Shown: piece by piece, positions 4,618 to 56,422 of the stretch
Position numbering within the stretch: position 1 is the first letter of the stretch
Layout: the number at the start of each line of letters is the position of its first letter
From: an uncultured Candidatus Saccharibacteria bacterium
GTDB lineage: Bacteria; Patescibacteriota; Doudnabacteria; UBA920
Direction of reading: 5' to 3'
Assembly: GCA_964436545.1 (NCBI GenBank)
Contig: CAYTCJ010000001.1
Coordinates: forward strand, 14,392-78,391
Length of the DNA stretch: 64,000 nt
Program-made: the position numbers and the translations under genes
Notes under the pieces: model-generated
What the model saw: only the letters and a program-made list of their open reading frames with translations
Database searches by the model: none
What the model was told of the DNA's origin: nothing

Positions 4618-5289
4618 TTGAATAATCAAAAAGATGTTATGCCTTCAGAAGTTTATGATACGGATAGAGAAAATTTGGCAAAAGCTGATGCTAATTTAGT
4701 AAGAGTAGGATTAAATGTTAGTTTAATAAAAGAGTTTAAAAGAGTGTTGGACTTAGGAGCAGGAGATTGTGTAATTGAAAGAACAGTTACACAAGCTGGG
4801 GGTACGAATGTTACTTCTGTTGGATTAAAACCATCAAATACCAATCGATCAAGAGCTGTAAATTTTACTTCCATGGATATTACTCGGGGGGTGGGAAGAT
4901 TACCTTTAGCAAGTTTTGATTTAATTGTGAGTATTAACGGACCAATGGCTTTATCTAAAACCCGTGAACAAGCAGTAGCAATGTTGGAAAATTCAATTAG
5001 ATTATTGTCACCTCATGGTGAATTAAGGATTGCACCAATTCGTTTTGGTTTTATTAAACAGGAATTATTTTCTCGAGATGAAAGATATGCCAACATCCAA
5101 GGAAAATTATCACATTTAAGAACTGCAAAAGAAATTGATTATTTACAACAAGTTAATCAACAAGCAGATTCTTTGACTCAGGAAAGATTACGAAATTTAG
5201 GTTATGTGTTTGAGGTTGGTCATGGGCTAAATGGGATAGAAAACAGTTATTTGGTTTTTAAGAAAAGTCAAAATCCTTATGTTAATTGA
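4618..5289 (+). CDS. putative class I SAM-dependent methyltransferase-like protein
   Basis: VLDLGAGDC motif-I-like sequence; otherwise unassigned. Confidence 0.4.
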   Translation: MNNQKDVMPSEVYDTDRENLAKADANLVRVGLNVSLIKEFKRVLDLGAGDCVIERTVTQAGGTNVTSVGLKPSNTNRSRAVNFTSMDITRGVGRLPLASFDLIVSINGPMALSKTREQAVAMLENSIRLLSPHGELRIAPIRFGFIKQELFSRDERYANIQGKLSHLRTAKEIDYLQQVNQQADSLTQERLRNLGYVFEVGHGLNGIENSYLVFKKSQNPYVN

Positions 5290-6253
5290 CACTCACGCCC
5301 ATATTAATTTTAAAGCCTTTGAGGCTGATGCTACGGAAGTGGTTCAGCGCGCTTTTAATAATGGAGTAAGTCTAATCTTGGTGGGGACGCAAATAGATAC
5401 TTCTAAAGAAGCAGTTGAGCTTGCTGAGAAATTTAACTCCCCCGCCTTCGGTACCCCCTCTTTGGCCAAAGAGGGGGGAGGGGGAGTTTATGCTGTCGTG
5501 GGTCTTCATCCGGTTCATACTTACAGCCAGCATTTAGACGAAGAAGAAACCAGCTTTCAAACCCGCGAAGAAATTTTTGATTATGAAGCTTATTATAAAC
5601 TTGCCAGTCATCCGCTGGTGGTGGGTATAGGGGAGTGCGGATTGGACTATTACAGAATTAAGAATGATGAATTAGGAATTATGAATGTGGAAGAAATTAA
5701 GAAAAAGCAAAAACTGACTTTTATTCAGCAAATTAAATTAGCAAAAGAATTAGACAAGGCATTAGTGATTCATTGTCGGCCCAGTGTCGGCACGGCAGAT
5801 GCTTATGAAGATATCCTTCAAATTCTGGACCAAGAATTTGAAAAATTCCAAATTCCAAATCCCAAATTCCAAATGCGGTTTGAAATTCATTCTTTTACCG
5901 GTTCACCGGAGATTGCTATGGAGTTTGTAAAACGTGGCGCTTATGTAGGTTTAAATGGTATAATTACCTTTGGAGATCGAAAGACAAAAAATCTGACGAC
6001 ATCCTCCATAGCCTTGGCGAAGGAGGGTGATAAGACCGGTAATATGAAAAAAGTGGTGGAAACTGTGCCTTTGGAGCGAATAGTTTTGGAAACCGATTCG
6101 CCTTACCTAACTCCAGTCCCGCATCGAGGAAAACGCAATGAGCCTTTATTTGTTAAACACGTAGCAGAAAAAGTGGCGGAAATTAAAGGTGTGTCTTTAG
6201 AAGAAGTGGCAAAAACCACAACTCAAAACGCTAAATTGTTATTTAATATTTAA
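5279..6253 (+). CDS. tatD: TatD family metal-dependent hydrolase (DNase) with in-frame palindromic and microsatellite insertions
   Basis: MLIDTHAHINF start, TatD His/Asp/Glu pattern; insertions at 5440-5490, 5850-5885, 6005-6030. Confidence 0.85.
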   Translation: MLIDTHAHINFKAFEADATEVVQRAFNNGVSLILVGTQIDTSKEAVELAEKFNSPAFGTPSLAKEGGGGVYAVVGLHPVHTYSQHLDEEETSFQTREEIFDYEAYYKLASHPLVVGIGECGLDYYRIKNDELGIMNVEEIKKKQKLTFIQQIKLAKELDKALVIHCRPSVGTADAYEDILQILDQEFEKFQIPNPKFQMRFEIHSFTGSPEIAMEFVKRGAYVGLNGIITFGDRKTKNLTTSSIALAKEGDKTGNMKKVVETVPLERIVLETDSPYLTPVPHRGKRNEPLFVKHVAEKVAEIKGVSLEEVAKTTTQNAKLLFNI

Positions 6254-6257
6254 AGTT

Positions 6258-9200
6258 ATGACTAAGTATAATCCAAAAAAAACCGAAGCGAAATGGCAAA
6301 AATTTTGGCAGACCCGAAAAATTTTTGTTGGCAAAGATTTTTCCAAAAAACCTAAAAAATTTGTCTTAGTGGAATTTCCATATCCTTCCGGTGCGGGTTT
6401 GCATATGGGCCATTTGCGTCCCTATGTGGCTGCCGATGTCTATGCTCGGTTTTGCAGAATGAAAGGTTTTGAAACTTTATTCCCCATGGGCTGGGATGCT
6501 TTTGGGCTTCCGGCAGAAAATTATGCTCTAAAAATGGGCGTGCATCCGGCCATTACCACCAAAAAGAACATTGCCAATGCTAAAAAACAAATGTTGTCTT
6601 GGGGACTTTCGTTCGATTGGAGCCGGGAAATTAATACCACAGATCCGAATTACTATAAATGGACACAGTGGTTATTTTTACAGTTCTATAAAAAGGGTTT
6701 GGCTTTTGAAGCGACCGGAGTCATTAATTGGTGTCCTTCTTGTAAAACTGGTTTGGCTAACGAAGAAGTGATAGACAACAGTTGTGAGCGTTGTGGCACT
6801 AAAGTGGAAAAGAAAGAATTAAGGCAATGGTATTTAAAAATTACTCAATACGCGGAAAAGTTATTGCAAGGTTTGGAAACTTTAAAAGCTTGGCCCGAAC
6901 CGGTAAAACTTCAACAACAGAATTGGATTGGTAAAAAAACCGGAATAAATATTACTTACGATATTGTTTCGGATAAGGCAGATTCAAATTATGTTTTACT
7001 TCATGGGTTTAACGGAAGCAGTGAGGGGATATTTTTTCCGTGGTTAAAACAAGAATTAAACAAACGAACAGTAAAAGTAGTTTGTCCTAATTTACCTAAC
7101 GCCAATCATCCCACAGAAGATGAACAAGTAGCATATGTGTTAAAAACTTGCGAATTTAATTCTCGCACTATTTTATTTGGCCATAGTTTAGGCGCGGTGG
7201 TGGCTTTAAAGGTGTTAGAAAAATTAAACACTAAAATTGCCGGAGTGGTTTTAGCCGGGGGTTTTACCAATCCAAATTTTAAAGATAATTCAAGACCGTT
7301 TGCAAAAACTTTTAATTGGCAGTTTGATTTTAATAAAATTAAATCCAATGTGGATTTTGTAAAGATTCTTAGCGATCCCACAGATTATGCCATTCCCACA
7401 GAGCAAGGAAAGAATCTGCAAATGAACTTGGCAGGCGCTCTTTTGGAAATCCCCGGTGAAAAACCGCATTACACTTCGGAAGTGGAACCTAATATTTTAA
7501 ACGCACTTCTACCTAACATTACTTGCTTTACCACTCGGCCAGACACCAACTTTGGAGCGACCTTTGTGGTAATCGGACCGGAACATCCGTATTTAAAACA
7601 TAGGCAAATTTTAAATATTGGCACCAAAGCTTGGCAAGCCATTGAAGCTTATAAGCAACAAGCTTTAAGCCAAGGCGATGAAGTTAGAACTGCGGAAAAC
7701 CGTAAAAAGACCGGAGTGTTTACGGGTTTGTATTGTTTGAACCCGCTCACTAATTTTAAAATGCCGTTATATGTGGCAGATTATGTGCTGGGGAATGTGG
7801 GTACCGGGGCGGTGGTGGGTGTGCCTGGGCATGACAAGCGGGATTTTGAATTTGCCCAAGTTTTTAATTTGGAAATTAAACGCGTGGTACAAAAGCATGA
7901 ACAAGACAATTTACCCATAACCACCTTAGAGCAAGTTCAGGAAGAAACAGGGGTTATGGTAAATTCCGAATTTTTAAACGGGTTAGATATCCATACCGCC
8001 ACAGAAAAAATTATGGATTATATGGAAAGTCAAGGAATGGGTAAACGAGTGGTAAATTATAAATTACGGGATTGGGTATTTAGTCGCCAAAGGTATTGGG
8101 GTGAACCTATTCCTTTGGTGCACTGTGAAGATTGCGGGGTAGTGCCGGTACCGGAAAAAGATTTGCCGGTTAAACTGCCCAAAGTAAAAAAATATGAACC
8201 TACCGGCACCGGGGAATCACCCTTGGCAGATATTTTAAATTGGGTTAAAACCAAATGCCCACAGTGTAAAAAGTTGGCTTATCGGGAAACTAACACTATG
8301 CCTCAGTGGGCAGGGAGTAGTTGGTATTGGTTAAGATTTACCGATGCCAAAAATTCCAAAGCTTTTGCATCTATCAAAAACCAAAAATACTGGACTCCGG
8401 TAGATGTATATTTTGGCGGAATGGAGCATACGACTTTGCATTTGCTTTACAGCCGTTTTTGGAATCAATTTTTGTTTGATAATGGCTTGGTAGTTTCCAG
8501 CGAACCCTATAGTTTGCGCAAACCTCACGGCATTGTTTTGGGTCCGGATGGCGAAAAAATGTCCAAGTCTCGGGGTAATGTGGTAGATCCGCAAGCGATA
8601 ATTAAACTTTATGGCGCAGATACCTTAAGAATGTATGAATTATTTTTAGGTCCGCATGAGGCCATGGTGGCGTTTAATGATAAAGGCGCCGTAGGGGTAA
8701 AACGGTTTTTAGATAGAATGTGGGATTGGGTATTAAATAATATCAAATATCAAAAATCAAATATCAAAGATTCGGAAAAAGTGGAGCAGGAATTGCATAA
8801 ATTAATAAAGAAAATCACTGAAGATATTGAAAATTTCCGCTTTAATACTTGTATCTCCGCTTTTATGGAGTTTTATAACCAAATTAAAGAAGAGAAGGTC
8901 TCTTGGGAAGTAATAAAAACTTTTTTAATTTTATTGTATCCTTTTGCCCCGCACGTAGCCGAAGAGTTGAATCAGCTTGCCAGCTCGTCAGCTAATCAGC
9001 GAATCCTCCGTCGCCATGGCTATGGAGGACAAGTCAGAAAGTCAGCGAATCAAAAAATTATTAAGTCACTCCAGTTGGCCAAGTGGCCGGAGTTTGACAG
9101 TACGAAAATTGTTCAGAAAGAAGCGGAAATTGTAATTCAAATTAATGGAAAAGTGAAAGGTAAAATTCAAGTGGGGTTTGATTCAGCCGAAGAGGCGGTT

Positions 9201-9305
9201 AAAGTGGAAGTTTTAAAATTGGAGGTTATTAAACAAGCTCTAATTAACGATAGCATTAAGCGAGTGGTATTTGTTAAGAACCGATTAATTAATTTGGTAA
9301 TCTAA
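6258..9305 (+). CDS. leuS: Leucyl-tRNA synthetase carrying an inserted alpha/beta-hydrolase domain (~6975-7500) at the CP1 editing-domain junction
   Basis: HMGH and KMSKS motifs, TTRPDT editing motif; 1015 aa vs ~800-860 typical; insertion contains LLHGFNGSS and GHSLGA nucleophile elbow. Confidence 0.9.
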   Translation: MTKYNPKKTEAKWQKFWQTRKIFVGKDFSKKPKKFVLVEFPYPSGAGLHMGHLRPYVAADVYARFCRMKGFETLFPMGWDAFGLPAENYALKMGVHPAITTKKNIANAKKQMLSWGLSFDWSREINTTDPNYYKWTQWLFLQFYKKGLAFEATGVINWCPSCKTGLANEEVIDNSCERCGTKVEKKELRQWYLKITQYAEKLLQGLETLKAWPEPVKLQQQNWIGKKTGINITYDIVSDKADSNYVLLHGFNGSSEGIFFPWLKQELNKRTVKVVCPNLPNANHPTEDEQVAYVLKTCEFNSRTILFGHSLGAVVALKVLEKLNTKIAGVVLAGGFTNPNFKDNSRPFAKTFNWQFDFNKIKSNVDFVKILSDPTDYAIPTEQGKNLQMNLAGALLEIPGEKPHYTSEVEPNILNALLPNITCFTTRPDTNFGATFVVIGPEHPYLKHRQILNIGTKAWQAIEAYKQQALSQGDEVRTAENRKKTGVFTGLYCLNPLTNFKMPLYVADYVLGNVGTGAVVGVPGHDKRDFEFAQVFNLEIKRVVQKHEQDNLPITTLEQVQEETGVMVNSEFLNGLDIHTATEKIMDYMESQGMGKRVVNYKLRDWVFSRQRYWGEPIPLVHCEDCGVVPVPEKDLPVKLPKVKKYEPTGTGESPLADILNWVKTKCPQCKKLAYRETNTMPQWAGSSWYWLRFTDAKNSKAFASIKNQKYWTPVDVYFGGMEHTTLHLLYSRFWNQFLFDNGLVVSSEPYSLRKPHGIVLGPDGEKMSKSRGNVVDPQAIIKLYGADTLRMYELFLGPHEAMVAFNDKGAVGVKRFLDRMWDWVLNNIKYQKSNIKDSEKVEQELHKLIKKITEDIENFRFNTCISAFMEFYNQIKEEKVSWEVIKTFLILLYPFAPHVAEELNQLASSSANQRILRRHGYGGQVRKSANQKIIKSLQLAKWPEFDSTKIVQKEAEIVIQINGKVKGKIQVGFDSAEEAVKVEVLKLEVIKQALINDSIKRVVFVKNRLINLVI

Positions 9306-49531: not shown

Positions 49532-52084
49532 ATGCTCTTGGGTTTCGATGCAGTACAAATTGCCTTTTTAATTTTAGTTGCCCTAGTTATTGTTTTTGGC
49601 TGGGTGTTTTTTTATTTTTTTAAAAAACACGTTTATCATAAAGGGCATGTAGTGCCTCGCACGCTGGATTGGGTATTTTTGGAAATTCAAATGCCCAAAG
49701 AAAATAGTGAAGATAAAGACCAACAGCGAACTAAAAGTGAAGAAGAAAAAAAAGCCCTCATTGCTGTTGGTGAACAACTATTTACGACGCTATCGGAAAG
49801 CGGACACAGTAAGGGGTGGCTCAAGGGTAAGGATTATTATAGTTTTGAAATTGCCTGTACTGATAAGAAAATTTCTTTCTACATTAATTGTCCGAAACAT
49901 TTACAGCAATTGGTGGAAAAACAACTCCAAGCCCAGTATCCTCATGCGTTTGTGGAGCAGGTGAAGGGGTATAATCCGTTTCAAAAAGGTTCAGAGGTGG
50001 AAGCCAAGGAATTACAATTAAATAAAAAATATGTTTACCCGTTTCGCACTTATAAGAACACCGAAACCGATCCGTTAAACGCGCTTACCAATGCCATGAG
50101 TAAACTTCAGGAAGGTGAGGGTGTGGCGATTCAGTATGTTATTAGTCCGGCAGGCACAGCTTGGCAATCTACCCCTCGGCATATGGCTTTGGAAGTCCAG
50201 CAAGGCAAGAATCCGGAGTTAATTGAACGGGGACATATTTACAAAGTGTTTATTGGGTTTCGACGCTTTTTAGCCAGTGTTTTAACCGGCACTACCGGTC
50301 AGCAAAGCCAAGGTTCGCATGTGCATAAAGATTTAAGCGGTTACGGGGCGCCAATTCAACTTACCCCCATGCAACAGGAAATTGTTAAACGGCTCGAAGA
50401 AAAGGCCAGCCGACCGGGTTATAAAATGAACATTCGTTTGGTGACTTCTTCGGTAATTCCGGGAAATGCCAAAATGCATATGCATAATTTGGTTTCCAGT
50501 TTTTTGCAATATAATTTTCCGCCCTTTAACGGTTTAAGGGAAAAACGAAGAAACAAGAATGAAGTGTTGATTGATTACATTTTTCGGGTATTTAGAGATT
50601 ATGGTAAAACCAATATTATTAATACCGAAGAGATGTGCTCGTTGTGGCATTTGCCCACGCCGTTTATTGAGACACCGAATATTAAATGGTTAATTTCCAA
50701 AAAAGCTCCTCCGCCCATTAATGTGCATCAGGCAGGTTTGTTGATTGGTAAAAATATTTATCGGAACGTGGAAACTCCCATTTATATGGGCCGGGAAGAC
50801 AGACGCCGACATACTTATATTTTGGGCAGAACCGGAAGCGGTAAGTCCGTGCTGTTGTCCAACATGGCCATTCAGGATATTAAAAACGGCGAAGGTTTAT
50901 GTGTAATTGATCCGCACGGCGATTTGATTCAAGATATTTTATTAAATTGTCCCAAAGAACGAGCCGAAGACATTATTGTTTTAGAACCGTTCGATATGGA
51001 GCGTCCGATTGGTTTAAATATGCTGGAAGTGGACAGCGAAGAACAAAAAGATTTTGCCGTGCAGGAAATGATTTCGATTTTTTATAAATTGGTTACCGAT
51101 CCGGCCATGCTGGGGCCCATGTTTGAACATAATATGCGTAATGCCATGTTGACTTTAATGGCCGACGAAGAACATCCGGGTACCATAACCGATGTGCCGA
51201 GGATTTTTACCGATACCGAATTTCAACGTTATAAATTATCTAAAGTGAAAGATCACGTAGTGAGATTATTCTGGGAAAAAGAAATGGCGAAAACCTCGGA
51301 TTTTCACAAATCGGAAATGTTGGGGTATTTGATTTCCAAGGTGGGTCGGTTTGTGGAAAATACCATGATGCGCAATATTGTCGGGCAATCCAAGAGTGGT
51401 TTTAATTTTAGAAAAGTGATGGATGAAGGCAAAGTGTTATTGGTAAATTTATCCAAAGGCCGAACCGGTGAAATTAATGCCAAGTTATTGGGGTTAATTC
51501 TTGTTTCTAAAATTCAAATGGCAGCATTATCTCGAGCGGATATACCGGAAGAAAAACGTCGCGACTTTTATTTGTATGTAGATGAGTTCCAAAATTTTAT
51601 TACCGATGCGTTTTCCTCAATTTTATCGGAAGCGAGAAAATATAAGTTAAATTTAATTATCGCACACCAGTATTTGGGACAGTTAGAAACTCAGGCCGGG
51701 GCTCAAGGGGCTGGCAGTAAAGATTTACGCGATGCGGTATTTGGCAACGTGGGGACTATGGTGGTGTTTAGAACCGGAGCGGAAGATAGCGAAGTTTTAG
51801 GCAAGGAATTTAGCCCGACTTTTAACCAGTTTGATTTGGTAAACATAGACAGGTATAATGCTTATGTAAAACTCATGGTCAATGGCACAGCCAGTAAGCC
51901 GTTTAATATGGCGACAATGCCTCCGCGTAAAGAAGGCACGGAAGAAGTCGCCAATGCCATCCGCCAATTGTCTCGTTTAAAATATGGACGAGCCAGAGCC
52001 GAAGTGGAAGCTGAGCTTTTGGAAGCCGGACAAGTGGCAGAGAGTATGGCCGAAGCCTTGCCGGCCATTGAACGAGGTTTGTAA
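49532..52084 (+). CDS. membrane-anchored TraG/TraD/VirD4-like (type IV coupling protein family) P-loop ATPase, 850 aa
   Basis: N-terminal TM; Walker A LGRTGSGKS; Walker B YVDEFQNF; IIAHQYLGQL...FGNVGT motif typical of TraG/VirD4 family. Confidence 0.65.
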   Translation: MLLGFDAVQIAFLILVALVIVFGWVFFYFFKKHVYHKGHVVPRTLDWVFLEIQMPKENSEDKDQQRTKSEEEKKALIAVGEQLFTTLSESGHSKGWLKGKDYYSFEIACTDKKISFYINCPKHLQQLVEKQLQAQYPHAFVEQVKGYNPFQKGSEVEAKELQLNKKYVYPFRTYKNTETDPLNALTNAMSKLQEGEGVAIQYVISPAGTAWQSTPRHMALEVQQGKNPELIERGHIYKVFIGFRRFLASVLTGTTGQQSQGSHVHKDLSGYGAPIQLTPMQQEIVKRLEEKASRPGYKMNIRLVTSSVIPGNAKMHMHNLVSSFLQYNFPPFNGLREKRRNKNEVLIDYIFRVFRDYGKTNIINTEEMCSLWHLPTPFIETPNIKWLISKKAPPPINVHQAGLLIGKNIYRNVETPIYMGREDRRRHTYILGRTGSGKSVLLSNMAIQDIKNGEGLCVIDPHGDLIQDILLNCPKERAEDIIVLEPFDMERPIGLNMLEVDSEEQKDFAVQEMISIFYKLVTDPAMLGPMFEHNMRNAMLTLMADEEHPGTITDVPRIFTDTEFQRYKLSKVKDHVVRLFWEKEMAKTSDFHKSEMLGYLISKVGRFVENTMMRNIVGQSKSGFNFRKVMDEGKVLLVNLSKGRTGEINAKLLGLILVSKIQMAALSRADIPEEKRRDFYLYVDEFQNFITDAFSSILSEARKYKLNLIIAHQYLGQLETQAGAQGAGSKDLRDAVFGNVGTMVVFRTGAEDSEVLGKEFSPTFNQFDLVNIDRYNAYVKLMVNGTASKPFNMATMPPRKEGTEEVANAIRQLSRLKYGRARAEVEAELLEAGQVAESMAEALPAIERGL

Positions 52085-54772: not shown

Positions 54773-56422
54773 ATGTCCGTTTTATATAGAAAATATCGAC
54801 CACAAGTTTTTGCTGAAGTAGTTGGGCAACAGCCAATTATTACCACTTTGCAAAACCAAATTACCACGGGGCGAATTGCCCACGCTTTTTTATTTGTAGG
54901 AAGTCGGGGAATTGGCAAGACTTCCGTAGCTCGCATTTTAGCTAAGGCAATAAATTGTCAATCAGTAAATCAGTCAATCAGTAAATCTGCTAATCAGGAA
55001 CCCTCTTTGTCCCTTAATAGTTCGGGACATCTCCCCCTGTCTGCCGACAAGGCAGGCCCAGAGGGGGAGAAAAATATTGTACAGGCTTTGCCTGATGCCT
55101 TAGGTGAGGCGTGCGGTAAGTGCGAAGTATGCAAAGCAATTGAGCAAGGTAATTTTATCGATTTAGTAGAAATCGATGCCGCTTCCAATACCGGAGTGGA
55201 TAATATTCGTGAATTAATTGAGCACACTAAATTTGCTCCGGCAAAAGCCAAATATAAGGTGTTTATAATTGACGAAGCCCATATGCTGTCTAAGGGCGCT
55301 TTTAATGCTTTGCTAAAAACTTTAGAAGAGCCACCGAGTCATGCCGTATTTATTTTAGCCACAACTGAAGTGGGTAAAGTGCCACCTACCATTATTTCTC
55401 GGACGCAAAGGTTGGATTTCAAGCGCGTTTCCATTGAAGTAATTGAAGCCTATTTGCGTAAAATTTTAGCTTGGGAAACCGCTCAAGTAGATGAGCAAAT
55501 CATTAAGTTAATTGCCGTGAATGCCGAAGGGGGGATGCGAGATGCTTTGTCTTTGTTAGACAAGGTCTTAAGTTTAGGGGCGCAGGCCGAGCTGGAGTCG
55601 GTTTTAAGACTTTTGGGCATAACCAATATTTCCAAAATGGAAAAGTTAGCCGAATTAATTTTTACTCACCAATCTCGCTTAATTCCGACGTTCTTAAAAG
55701 ATTTATACGAAGAAGGAGTAGATTTTATTGCCTTTAATAAGGACTTTTTAGAATATTTAAGAAAATTGTTGATTGTCAAAATATATGAATCCAGTCCGGA
55801 TTGGGGACTGACTCCGGCTCAAATTACTACTTTAGAGACAGTAAGCCATGCTCAAACCGAAGCCAAACTCATTAACACGATTAGATTATTTTTGCGTTCA
55901 TTAAAGGAACAAAATTCCGCGCCGAGTGTGGATTTGCCCGTATTATTAGCCAGCGTAGAAGCATCCTTTAGCCCAACTGCGGGATTGGGAGAAGTAAAAA
56001 AAAAGTCCAGTTTAAGTGAAGCTCCGGTCGTGGCATCTAAGGCTGGCGAAATAACTAGTCCCAGTTTACAGCCAGCGGTTAATTTGGCAGACAGCATAAC
56101 TTTAGAACAAGTTGAAGAAAAATGGACTGCATTTGTACAAGCGATTAAAGCTTTTAACGGACCTTTGGCCAATTTATTACGCACCGCGCAAATTTTTCAA
56201 GTTAAAGTGAGTAAGGTTTTTATTCTGGTTAAATACCAATTTCATAAGCAAAATTTGGAACAAGCCAAAAATAGTGATTTAACCGCTAAGGTGTTAAACG
56301 AGATTTACCATCTGCCTTTGGAATTGATTGTGGTAGTTAAGGAAGAAGCAGAAGATCAAGCGCCCACTAAGGTGGATGTAAGCTCGGCTTTGCAAGTTTT
56401 TGGGGGAGAAGTGATTGAGTAA
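54773..56422 (+). CDS. dnaX: DNA polymerase III subunit gamma/tau with in-frame repeat/palindrome insertion
   Basis: AAA+ GSRGIGKTS, clamp-loader motifs; insertion 54958-55070 encodes SVNQSISKSANQ...PLSADKAGPEGEK. Confidence 0.9.
   Translation: MSVLYRKYRPQVFAEVVGQQPIITTLQNQITTGRIAHAFLFVGSRGIGKTSVARILAKAINCQSVNQSISKSANQEPSLSLNSSGHLPLSADKAGPEGEKNIVQALPDALGEACGKCEVCKAIEQGNFIDLVEIDAASNTGVDNIRELIEHTKFAPAKAKYKVFIIDEAHMLSKGAFNALLKTLEEPPSHAVFILATTEVGKVPPTIISRTQRLDFKRVSIEVIEAYLRKILAWETAQVDEQIIKLIAVNAEGGMRDALSLLDKVLSLGAQAELESVLRLLGITNISKMEKLAELIFTHQSRLIPTFLKDLYEEGVDFIAFNKDFLEYLRKLLIVKIYESSPDWGLTPAQITTLETVSHAQTEAKLINTIRLFLRSLKEQNSAPSVDLPVLLASVEASFSPTAGLGEVKKKSSLSEAPVVASKAGEITSPSLQPAVNLADSITLEQVEEKWTAFVQAIKAFNGPLANLLRTAQIFQVKVSKVFILVKYQFHKQNLEQAKNSDLTAKVLNEIYHLPLELIVVVKEEAEDQAPTKVDVSSALQVFGGEVIE

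Follow-up and report, generated by a model that had tools for sequence, protein, structure and literature searches.

Within a 64,000-nucleotide stretch of contig CAYTCJ010000001.1, originating from an uncultured bacterium of the Doudnabacteria lineage (the whole stretch is hereafter referred to as the window), we found a leucyl-tRNA synthetase (LeuRS) that hosts a complete second enzyme domain inside its own editing domain, i.e., connective peptide 1 (CP1). The leuS gene (6258..9305, plus strand, on which all window features described below are located) is one uninterrupted open reading frame (ORF) coding for a protein of 1015 amino acids, and the guest (6969..7517; aa 238-420) was identified by profile searches and by its fold model as a lid-less alpha/beta serine hydrolase of the YdeN/RBBP9 family (PF06821). 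The catalytic residues of the guest are conserved and its sequence is under purifying selection, the signatures of the host enzyme are intact, and the histories of guest and host are decoupled. The explanation that we favor, and hold with moderate confidence, is that this LeuRS functions canonically and hosts an autonomous, catalytically competent serine hydrolase, one of a set of exchangeable small guest enzymes in essential proteins of the candidate phyla radiation (CPR) bacteria and of the DPANN archaea (Diapherotrites, Parvarchaeota, Aenigmarchaeota, Nanoarchaeota, and Nanohaloarchaeota).

Identity, boundaries, and predicted fold of the guest domain

A first-pass annotation, made from the nucleotide sequence, had proposed that the LeuRS is encoded by a continuous frame of 1015 aa and that it carries an alpha/beta-hydrolase insertion of about 185 residues (6975-7500) at the CP1 junction. 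The leuS ORF indeed consists of 1015 codons with no internal stops, and in the alignment with the Thermus thermophilus LeuRS structure (1H3N, E=2e-209) residues 1-236 of the query correspond to residues 1-236, and residues 421-762 to residues 243-579, so that 184 residues (237-420) stand in place of six in the T. thermophilus enzyme; the region indicated at first falls inside the true insert (nt 6969-7517). Likewise, the NWIG and TTRPDT motifs are 203 residues apart in the window LeuRS vs 25 in relatives devoid of the insert. The upstream anchor of the insert is formed by the NWIG motif and the first CP1 beta-strand (6921..6968; aa 222-237, KKTGINITYDIV). As regards the site, the insert does not lie at the junction between CP1 and the catalytic core proper; it occupies a loop within CP1, that of its first beta-hairpin, whose strands are 226-237 and 420-425 (the latter leading into TTRPDT).

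The insert alone, when compared with Pfam, matched Abhydrolase_1 (PF00561, E=3e-9), Abhydrolase_6 (PF12697, E=1.2e-8), and Ser_hydrolase (PF06821, E=3.3e-8), in each case above the gathering score. The PF06821 match reached 34.1 bits (gathering score of 22) and covered positions 1-118 of the 172-position profile, the C-terminal third being supplied by the alignment with Bacillus subtilis YdeN (1UXO, residues 8-162) and by the fold match. By sequence, the nearest solved relatives were the same YdeN structure (E=1.7e-12) and human RBBP9 (E of about 7e-8).

The AlphaFold2 (AF2) model of the full-length LeuRS had a mean predicted local distance difference test (pLDDT) value of 87.1 and a predicted template modeling score (pTM) of 0.75, with pLDDT values of 91-98 for residues 240-420, and the insert modeled alone gave a pLDDT of 96.6 and a pTM of 0.93. 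According to these models the insert would fold as an independent domain, as the first-pass annotation had anticipated, connected to CP1 by linkers of about six residues on the N-terminal side (238-243) and two on the C-terminal side (418-419). In the Foldseek comparison of the insert model with the Protein Data Bank (PDB), YdeN (1UXO; template modeling (TM) score of 0.85, root-mean-square deviation (rmsd) of 2.2 Å, E=1.7e-13, 184 columns) and RBBP9 (TM score of 0.83) were retrieved, the YdeN/RBBP9 matches having E-values of about 1e-12 to 1e-13, and the next-best alpha/beta hydrolases had E-values about 10^6-fold worse. No homology of the insert to the editing folds of aminoacyl-tRNA synthetases (CP1, AlaX, YbaK/ProXp, and Dtd) was found, as its profile, PDB, and fold matches were confined to alpha/beta-hydrolase families.

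Catalytic residues and selection

The assignment to YdeN/RBBP9-type serine hydrolases with an intact Ser-Asp-His triad and an oxyanion HG loop, originally based on a few motifs, was borne out, and all of the quoted motifs are present. The LLHGFNGSS segment contains the oxyanion-hole dipeptide H249-G250 (7002..7007), in which the His was found in 74 and the Gly in 82 of the 84 LeuRS fusions compared, and both in 11 of 11 stand-alone forms. The GHSLGA segment comprises the nucleophile elbow GHSLG (7179..7193; aa 308-312) with Ser310 (nt 7185-7187). The acid of the triad lies in the D373-P-T-D376 segment (7374..7385), where Asp376 (D139 of the insert) is the residue conserved across the family; D373 is present in 82 of the 84 fusions, and position 376 is occupied by D in 75 and by E in nine of them. 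Ser310, Gly312, and the catalytic His404 (7467..7469) are invariant in all 84. When the copies from all hosts were considered together with free-standing homologues, the sole invariant columns were those of the oxyanion Gly and of the catalytic Ser and His, with Asp376 nearly invariant.

An 88%-identical orthologue of the window LeuRS is encoded, in the same gene order, on six contigs from independent assemblies; this orthologue and a cluster representative with 100% identity to the window LeuRS come from assemblies of the Joint Genome Institute (JGI), the European Nucleotide Archive (ENA), and Logan. The ratio of nonsynonymous to synonymous substitution rates (dN/dS) calculated for the window gene and the 88%-identical orthologue was 0.094 for the insert, 0.089 for CP1, and 0.042 for the core (0.042-0.075 for the rest of the gene), these values being approximate, with dS of about 1. 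Purifying selection on the guest is strong, like that acting on CP1. Judging from the kept triad and this selection, the guest domain is predicted to be catalytically competent; the possibility of a dead structural spacer is ruled out by the invariant triad and the dN/dS of 0.09.

Integrity of the host enzyme

The window LeuRS matched the TIGR00396 (leuS_bact) model with 929.2 bits (cut-off of 548.4), the match being split into one stretch on either side of the insert, and all sequence criteria tested (profile score, class I signatures, and the CP1 editing site) agreed with a bacterial-type LeuRS. The HMGH class I signature (6402..6413; aa 49-52) and the KMSKS loop (8556..8570; aa 767-771) are intact. 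The remainder of the CP1 editing domain (7518..8057; aa 421-600; PF13603 match at aa 420-590, profile positions 22-185) contains intact TTRPDT (7530-7547), GTG (7800-7808), and HDKRD (7830-7844) motifs, the last one including the editing Asp529, which, mapped on 1H3N, is equivalent to D347 of T. thermophilus and D345 of Escherichia coli. In an alignment of 91 LeuRS sequences, mixing insert-bearing and insert-less enzymes, HMGH (H49, G51, and H52), KMSKS, TTRPDT (T425, T426, R427, P428, and T430), GTG (G515, T516, and G517), and HDxRD (H525, D526, R528, and D529) were invariant. These intact signatures predict a working, canonical bacterial LeuRS. Since all the CP1 editing residues are conserved, there is nothing for the guest to replace, which rules out a degenerate CP1 compensated by the hydrolase.

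Two other features of this protein should be mentioned. It is devoid of the leucine-specific domain of the T. thermophilus and E. coli enzymes (query residues 762-767 span T. thermophilus residues 579-637). Furthermore, a low-complexity segment (9170-9230; aa about 905-937; ...SSSANQRILRRHGYGGQVRKSANQK...), poorly modeled (pLDDT of 49-60) and preceding the C-terminal domain, is variable or deleted (by 15-25 residues) in most relatives.

Distribution of the insert and other permissive sites in LeuRS

For the comparative analysis, the 120 best matches to the window LeuRS in a collection of 5.8 billion proteins were taken as its relatives; a separate contig scan with patterns specific to the window protein, which is no taxonomic census, yielded about 8 close relatives and 70 ordinary LeuRS. 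A domain of about 175 residues in the same position (hereafter, site A) was found in 90 of the 120 relatives, i.e., alone in 77, together with a second inserted domain in 12, and in tandem in one, and all named carriers belong to Candidatus Doudnabacteria or Patescibacteria. The insert is thus a lineage-wide character, and neither a frameshift nor a separate gene.

At least three permissive sites exist in the LeuRS proteins of this clade, among which site A, occupied in the window, usually holds the hydrolase. Site B, a CP1 loop (7887..8036; aa 544-593), is unoccupied in the window LeuRS, and in relatives (P0072, P0103, P0038, P0095, and P0070) it accommodates a NUDIX, a Methyltransf_23/11 (class I S-adenosyl methionine (SAM)-dependent methyltransferase), or a HAD_2 domain, with or without the hydrolase at site A. 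The HAD guest of site B is weakly similar to PpaX (pyrophosphatase), and the NUDIX guest to RppH/NudB. Site C, also unoccupied in the window, directly follows the HCEDCG motif (8121..8138; aa 622-627), i.e., it lies after the HCxxCG zinc-knuckle (window residue 626/627), and contains a hydrolase of the same family in relatives with an empty site A. The site-C hydrolases (carriers: P0053, P0069, P0115, P0189, P0180, and P0209) nest in different site-A classes, showing 54%, 57%, and 39% identity to the nearest site-A insert. As each site-C copy is closest to a different site-A class, the domain must have moved between the sites more than once, although the trees used were crude neighbor-joining ones.

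Multiple guests may be combined in one protein. One LeuRS contains two tandem hydrolases at site A, and others a NUDIX or a GNAT domain accompanied by the hydrolase. In the 1318-aa P0230 LeuRS, site A is filled by a GNAT acetyltransferase (residues 306-394) beside the hydrolase (437-603). This GNAT domain recalls MccE-type acetylation of aminoacyl-nucleotide toxins, as well as the isoleucyl-tRNA synthetase (IleRS) with a GNAT domain defined in NCBIfam. Another relative, P0186 (998 aa, partial; Candidatus Parcubacteria, MCX6741383.1), has site A filled by an in-frame IS200-type Y1 transposase domain (PF01797, residues 269-374, E=5e-14), while its hydrolase occupies site C; this Y1 domain could be a clue to the entry of foreign ORFs into the site-A loop.

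Gain, loss, and replacement of the guest

The identity of the inserts was hardly related to the identity of the LeuRS backbones carrying them (r=0.15 over 3741 pairs of LeuRS fusions). In each of the three closest pairs of backbones (96.9, 93.0, and 92.9% identity), site A is occupied in one member and empty in the other, and at a backbone identity of about 90% the site-A inserts can be only 35-48% identical. In the closest occupied/empty pair, the loci are syntenic over about 14 kb, and the two leuS genes are therefore orthologues, not paralogues; the presence of a paralogous second leuS is also ruled out by the gene order shared by insert-bearing and insert-less alleles, i.e., methionyl-tRNA synthetase (MetRS) - methyltransferase-like - TatD - LeuRS - Sua5 - major facilitator superfamily (MFS) - serine hydroxymethyltransferase (SHMT). 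DNA identity along leuS of this pair is mosaic (82-100%). At the nucleotide level, a 28-nt loop segment of the empty allele is swapped for 555 nt in the occupied one. The empty sites A retain exactly the 25-residue spacing and a conserved 'IEN..' hairpin, which makes random deletion an unlikely source of the empty alleles.

The segment between the junctions (...DIV followed by SDK..., and ...LPN followed by ITC...) is wholly explained by the alpha/beta hydrolase. No repeat pair brackets nt 6969/7517, neither target-site duplications nor terminal repeats were found there or in the comparison with the empty allele, and no Hint or intein Pfam match was obtained for the insert. An intein or a transposon identity is ruled out by the lack of such matches, of an endonuclease, and of terminal repeats or duplications. 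The G+C content at third codon positions (GC3) of the insert (0.301) is lower than that of any equal-sized window elsewhere in leuS (0.350-0.410).

The hydrolase outside LeuRS

An exhaustive HMMER search of 1.84 billion cluster representatives with the insert gave 1450 matches (33 of them below 1e-30). The best 150 included 87 free-standing proteins of about 180 residues and 50 proteins with LeuRS parts; the remaining ones included six other proteins in which a member of this subfamily is nested, with 34-44% identity and unchanged domain boundaries. These hosts were valyl-tRNA synthetase (ValRS; P0158, L091 4001-7783), alanyl-tRNA synthetase (AlaRS; P0217), UvrA (P0222), Kae1/TsaD (P0166, L089 4001-5527; the guest splits PF00814), SecA (P0167), and EngA/Der (P0228; the guest lies between both GTPase domains). 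The copies in UvrA and Kae1 keep the Ser, Asp, and His but have a degenerate GxSxG elbow (WHSLW and AESFS, respectively). The Kae1 host gene adjoins genes of the archaeal ribosomal proteins L7Ae, S28e, and L24e; hence, the guest occurs in archaea too. Moreover, the closest free-standing homologue of the window insert (52% identity) is encoded next to subunit N of an archaeal-type RNA polymerase. In many lineages of CPR and DPANN, RBBP9/YdeN hydrolases commonly occur as separate proteins. The word-indexed search with the insert retrieved 12 stand-alone proteins and no fusions, and the word-indexed profile search was dominated by short proteins. A second copy of the hydrolase domain was not found in the 64-kb window, and the short loci searched hold one or none each.

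Proposed role of the guest and alternative explanations

We propose that the guest would act as an autonomous enzyme module and not as a component of the CP1 proofreading mechanism. Homologous recombination through the conserved flanks (NWIGK... and ...TTRPDTxFGAT) would account for the gain, loss, and replacement of whole-domain alleles, the LeuRS backbone evolving largely independently of them, and the NUDIX, HAD, SAM-methyltransferase, and GNAT domains of the relatives would represent other small guests of the same or neighboring loops. The likely chemistry is of the aminopeptidase or amino-acid esterase type, in which the Ser-Asp-His triad would hydrolyse an alpha-aminoacyl ester or amide whose alpha-amine is free, and by analogy the guest is probably an alpha-aminoacyl ester/amide hydrolase. 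This substrate class is deduced from RBBP9, since it is the sole characterized relative. RBBP9 is an aminopeptidase cutting a single amino acid with a free alpha-amine off amide substrates (PMC8866121), and where PMC7730578 cites Shenoy et al. 2020, it is credited with the hydrolysis (activation) of valacyclovir, an amino-acid ester of a nucleoside analogue. The alpha-amine anchor of RBBP9, Glu108, is not clearly conserved: it aligns with Ser345 of the guest, and a conserved Asp343, a tentative equivalent, is located two residues off. Because RBBP9 hydrolyses alpha-aminoacyl esters and amides and needs the free alpha-amine, action of the guest on aminoacyl esters, considered already in the first-pass annotation, is chemically plausible.

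Several points weigh against the view of the guest as an autonomous passenger. Its activity and substrate are extrapolated by analogy to the bacterial and archaeal members of the subfamily. Of about 57 embedded copies among the 150 best matches, 50 reside in LeuRS, which greatly exceeds all other hosts, although the count is biased by a query taken from LeuRS; this predominance and the entry into LeuRS at two or more sites, as well as into ValRS and AlaRS, could stem from a genuine functional connection with aminoacyl chemistry. The short linkers and the high pLDDT throughout them suggest, as far as the model goes, a fixed orientation on CP1, which a passenger would not need. Finally, recombination as the route of exchange is suggested by mosaicism and by the incongruence of guest and host trees, which are crude neighbor-joining (NJ) reconstructions.

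Some of these points favor a hydrolase that constitutes a second hydrolytic site coupled to the synthetase, located beside CP1 and clearing aminoacyl species which LeuRS makes or meets, such as mischarged aminoacyl-tRNALeu, misactivated aminoacyl-adenylate, or homocysteine thiolactone. The chemistry of RBBP9, which cleaves alpha-aminoacyl amides as well as a nucleoside analogue esterified with an amino acid and needs a free alpha-amine, would fit such a function; LeuRS, the dominant host, has been entered at both A and C, and the further hosts ValRS and AlaRS are, like LeuRS, editing synthetases; the linkers are short and confidently modeled; and inside LeuRS the triad is strictly conserved under purifying selection. 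We nevertheless consider this rather unlikely, as the intact CP1 editing residues leave no deficit to compensate, LeuRS backbones 93-97% identical do without the insert, and the same subfamily resides in UvrA, SecA, and EngA, which handle no aminoacyl esters. Besides, sites A and C lie in different parts of LeuRS, which argues against precise geometric coupling, and the co-resident NUDIX, HAD, methyltransferase, and GNAT guests are ill-suited to an editing role. For the same reasons (the intact CP1, the unrelated hosts, and the near relatives lacking the insert) the original idea of a hydrolase grafted on as part of the proofreading module was not sustained, and its alternative of a moonlighting esterase is closer to the evidence than a second proofreading site. 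A different reading, unlikely in our opinion, regards the guest as a selfish mobile cassette, inserted in frame and resembling inteins in its ecology (without splicing), which spreads via conserved flanks and colonizes permissive loops beside conserved motifs of essential genes, where it is hard to lose, any benefit to the host being secondary. Consistent with it, the hosts (LeuRS, ValRS, AlaRS, UvrA, SecA, EngA, and Kae1) are conserved, essential, NTP-using proteins of CPR and DPANN organisms, the insertion points abut invariant motifs, near-identical alleles occur with or without the insert, the phylogeny is incongruent and the GC3 deviant, and an IS200-like Y1 domain stands in frame at site A of P0186. 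Yet neither an endonuclease or a Hint domain nor terminal repeats or a duplicated target site were found at the junctions, a purely selfish element would not need an invariant triad and strong purifying selection, and free-standing paralogues are abundant as ordinary genes.

It may also be envisaged that the guest is a target-mounted immunity enzyme, destroying aminoacyl-nucleotide (aminoacyl-adenylate-mimic) antibiotics directed against class I synthetases; the GNAT, NUDIX, HAD, and methyltransferase guests would then be other toxin inactivators, and the turnover of cassettes an arms race. Enzymatic immunities to processed microcin C comprise MccF, a serine peptidase cutting the aminoacyl-nucleotide amide, and MccE, a GNAT acetylating the alpha-amine (PMC7157772). 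A serine hydrolase and a GNAT (P0230), matching these enzyme types, are both nested in LeuRS, an IleRS with a GNAT domain forms the NCBIfam family NF040702, and presence/absence polymorphism with swapping of divergent alleles on near-identical backbones is typical of diversifying selection. This case is wholly circumstantial and improbable in our estimation: MccF is an S66 peptidase and no alpha/beta hydrolase, the guests in UvrA, SecA, EngA, and Kae1 would remain unexplained, and free-standing copies of the hydrolase are common in CPR and DPANN. We also know of no LeuRS-directed natural product from these communities. An artefact, i.e., an assembly chimera, a frameshift hiding a separate gene, or a catalytically dead spacer, could be invoked, given that the window comes from a metagenome-assembled genome and that an exact look-up of its LeuRS was without a match. 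We find it hardly credible: the ORF is continuous, the cluster representative with 100% identity and the 88%-identical orthologue come from independent assemblies with the same synteny, identical proteins were recovered from assemblies made independently, and the architecture is shared by 90 of the 120 relatives; on these grounds an assembly error, a frameshift, and a separate gene are ruled out, and the invariant triad, the dN/dS, and the confident fold point the same way. It should be stressed that the competing readings and that of a canonical LeuRS hosting an autonomous hydrolase are not fully exclusive of each other.

In a broader sense, we tentatively put forward, as a suggestion that is far from certain, a CPR/DPANN class of exchangeable in-frame guest cassettes (YdeN-type hydrolase, NUDIX, HAD, SAM-methyltransferase, GNAT, and IS200-type), intein-like but without splicing, which would occupy surface loops by invariant motifs, above all of LeuRS and also of ValRS, AlaRS, Kae1, SecA, EngA, and UvrA, and be swapped between near-identical alleles. 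The guests of synthetases might instead be a target-mounted arsenal against aminoacyl-nucleotide inhibitors.

Other features of the window and of related loci

In the TatD-leuS interval, the insert-bearing strain (L002) contains a 231-aa ORF (locus positions about 5300-5995), and the insert-less one (L005) a gene (locus positions 5602-5949) for a 115-aa DUF559 protein with a Vsr-like endonuclease fold; both loci carry a bAvd/23S_rRNA_IVP gene downstream of Sua5. Within the window, the TatD protein (5279-6253; 324 aa) matches its 253-position profile spread over 321 residues, with extra segments including a Gly-rich one (...LAKEGGGGVYAV...). The window, which also contains core translation genes (EF-G, EF-Tu, and SecY), codes at 49532-52084 for an 850-aa type IV coupling protein of the VirD4/TrwB-like kind (HerA/DUF87 ATPase), possibly a component of a conjugative or DNA-uptake system with a bearing on the proposed recombination. 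In DnaX (54773-56422; 549 aa), the match to the clamp-loader AAA+ module (PF13177) is split in two, which suggests a small insertion within the P-loop domain and may be another loop insertion in an essential protein of this genome.

Significance

The described LeuRS is a natural, clade-wide case in which the editing domain of an essential synthetase accommodates a complete additional enzyme in the loop of a hairpin, and the CP1 of its relatives tolerates two or three guest enzymes; the permissive sites A, B, and C are of direct use for LeuRS engineering. The wider occurrence of exchangeable enzymes as guests of essential CPR and DPANN proteins is more unusual than the LeuRS insertion with which the analysis began. 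Purifying selection together with cassette swapping and recurrence in essential proteins that are unrelated and come from two domains of life points to an undescribed form of gene organization or mobility in ultra-small symbionts. To our knowledge, the YdeN/RBBP9 family has no known function in prokaryotes, and its repeated association with editing synthetases provides a testable hypothesis, i.e., hydrolysis of alpha-aminoacyl esters or amides.

Comparison with known systems

In agreement with the first-pass annotation, to which no esterase-LeuRS fusion was known, our literature searches brought up no publication on a fusion of LeuRS with a hydrolase or on guest domains of CPR synthetases. Automatic annotation has labeled one such protein 'leucyl-tRNA synthetase/predicted alpha/beta hydrolase family esterase' (JGI) and another 'alpha/beta fold hydrolase' (NCBI). 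In a 2026 survey of domain insertions, the LeuRS editing domain PF13603 was classified as insertion-only, with 'zero instances of host function' (PMC13114784), a statement that fails for the window LeuRS. The window protein shares its signatures and domain order with canonical bacterial LeuRS (T. thermophilus 1H3N/2BYT and E. coli 4AQ7), including the insertion of CP1 in the Rossmann fold after ZN-1, and differs in that CP1 itself hosts another domain, which results in two-level nesting.

The guest has in common with YdeN (1UXO) and RBBP9 (2QS9, 7OEX, and 9FCR) the lid-less alpha/beta fold of about 180 residues (TM scores of 0.83-0.85, rmsd of 2.2-2.4 Å), the HG oxyanion loop, the GHSxG elbow, the Asp and His positions, the overall length, and the termini. 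However, those proteins stand alone, whereas the guest is wholly nested in frame within a domain of another protein, and its identity to the solved structures is only 18-24%. The IleRS with a GNAT domain (NF040702) similarly joins a class Ia synthetase with a small-molecule-modifying enzyme domain in one polypeptide, but it involves another guest family and another host, and the window guest is nested in the editing domain, polymorphic, and swappable. With MccF and MccE, a serine hydrolase and a GNAT acting on alpha-aminoacyl-nucleotides, the LeuRS guests share the enzyme types (PMC7157772); MccF, however, has the different fold of an S66 peptidase, both are separate proteins of antibiotic gene clusters, and the YdeN-type guest is likened to them by enzyme type alone. 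Like inteins, the guest prefers conserved, essential, NTP-using hosts, adjoins invariant motifs, shows presence/absence polymorphism in close relatives, and has a history decoupled from that of the host gene. Unlike inteins, it possesses no Hint fold, splicing residues, or homing endonuclease, and it is an ordinary enzyme that presumably remains part of the mature protein.

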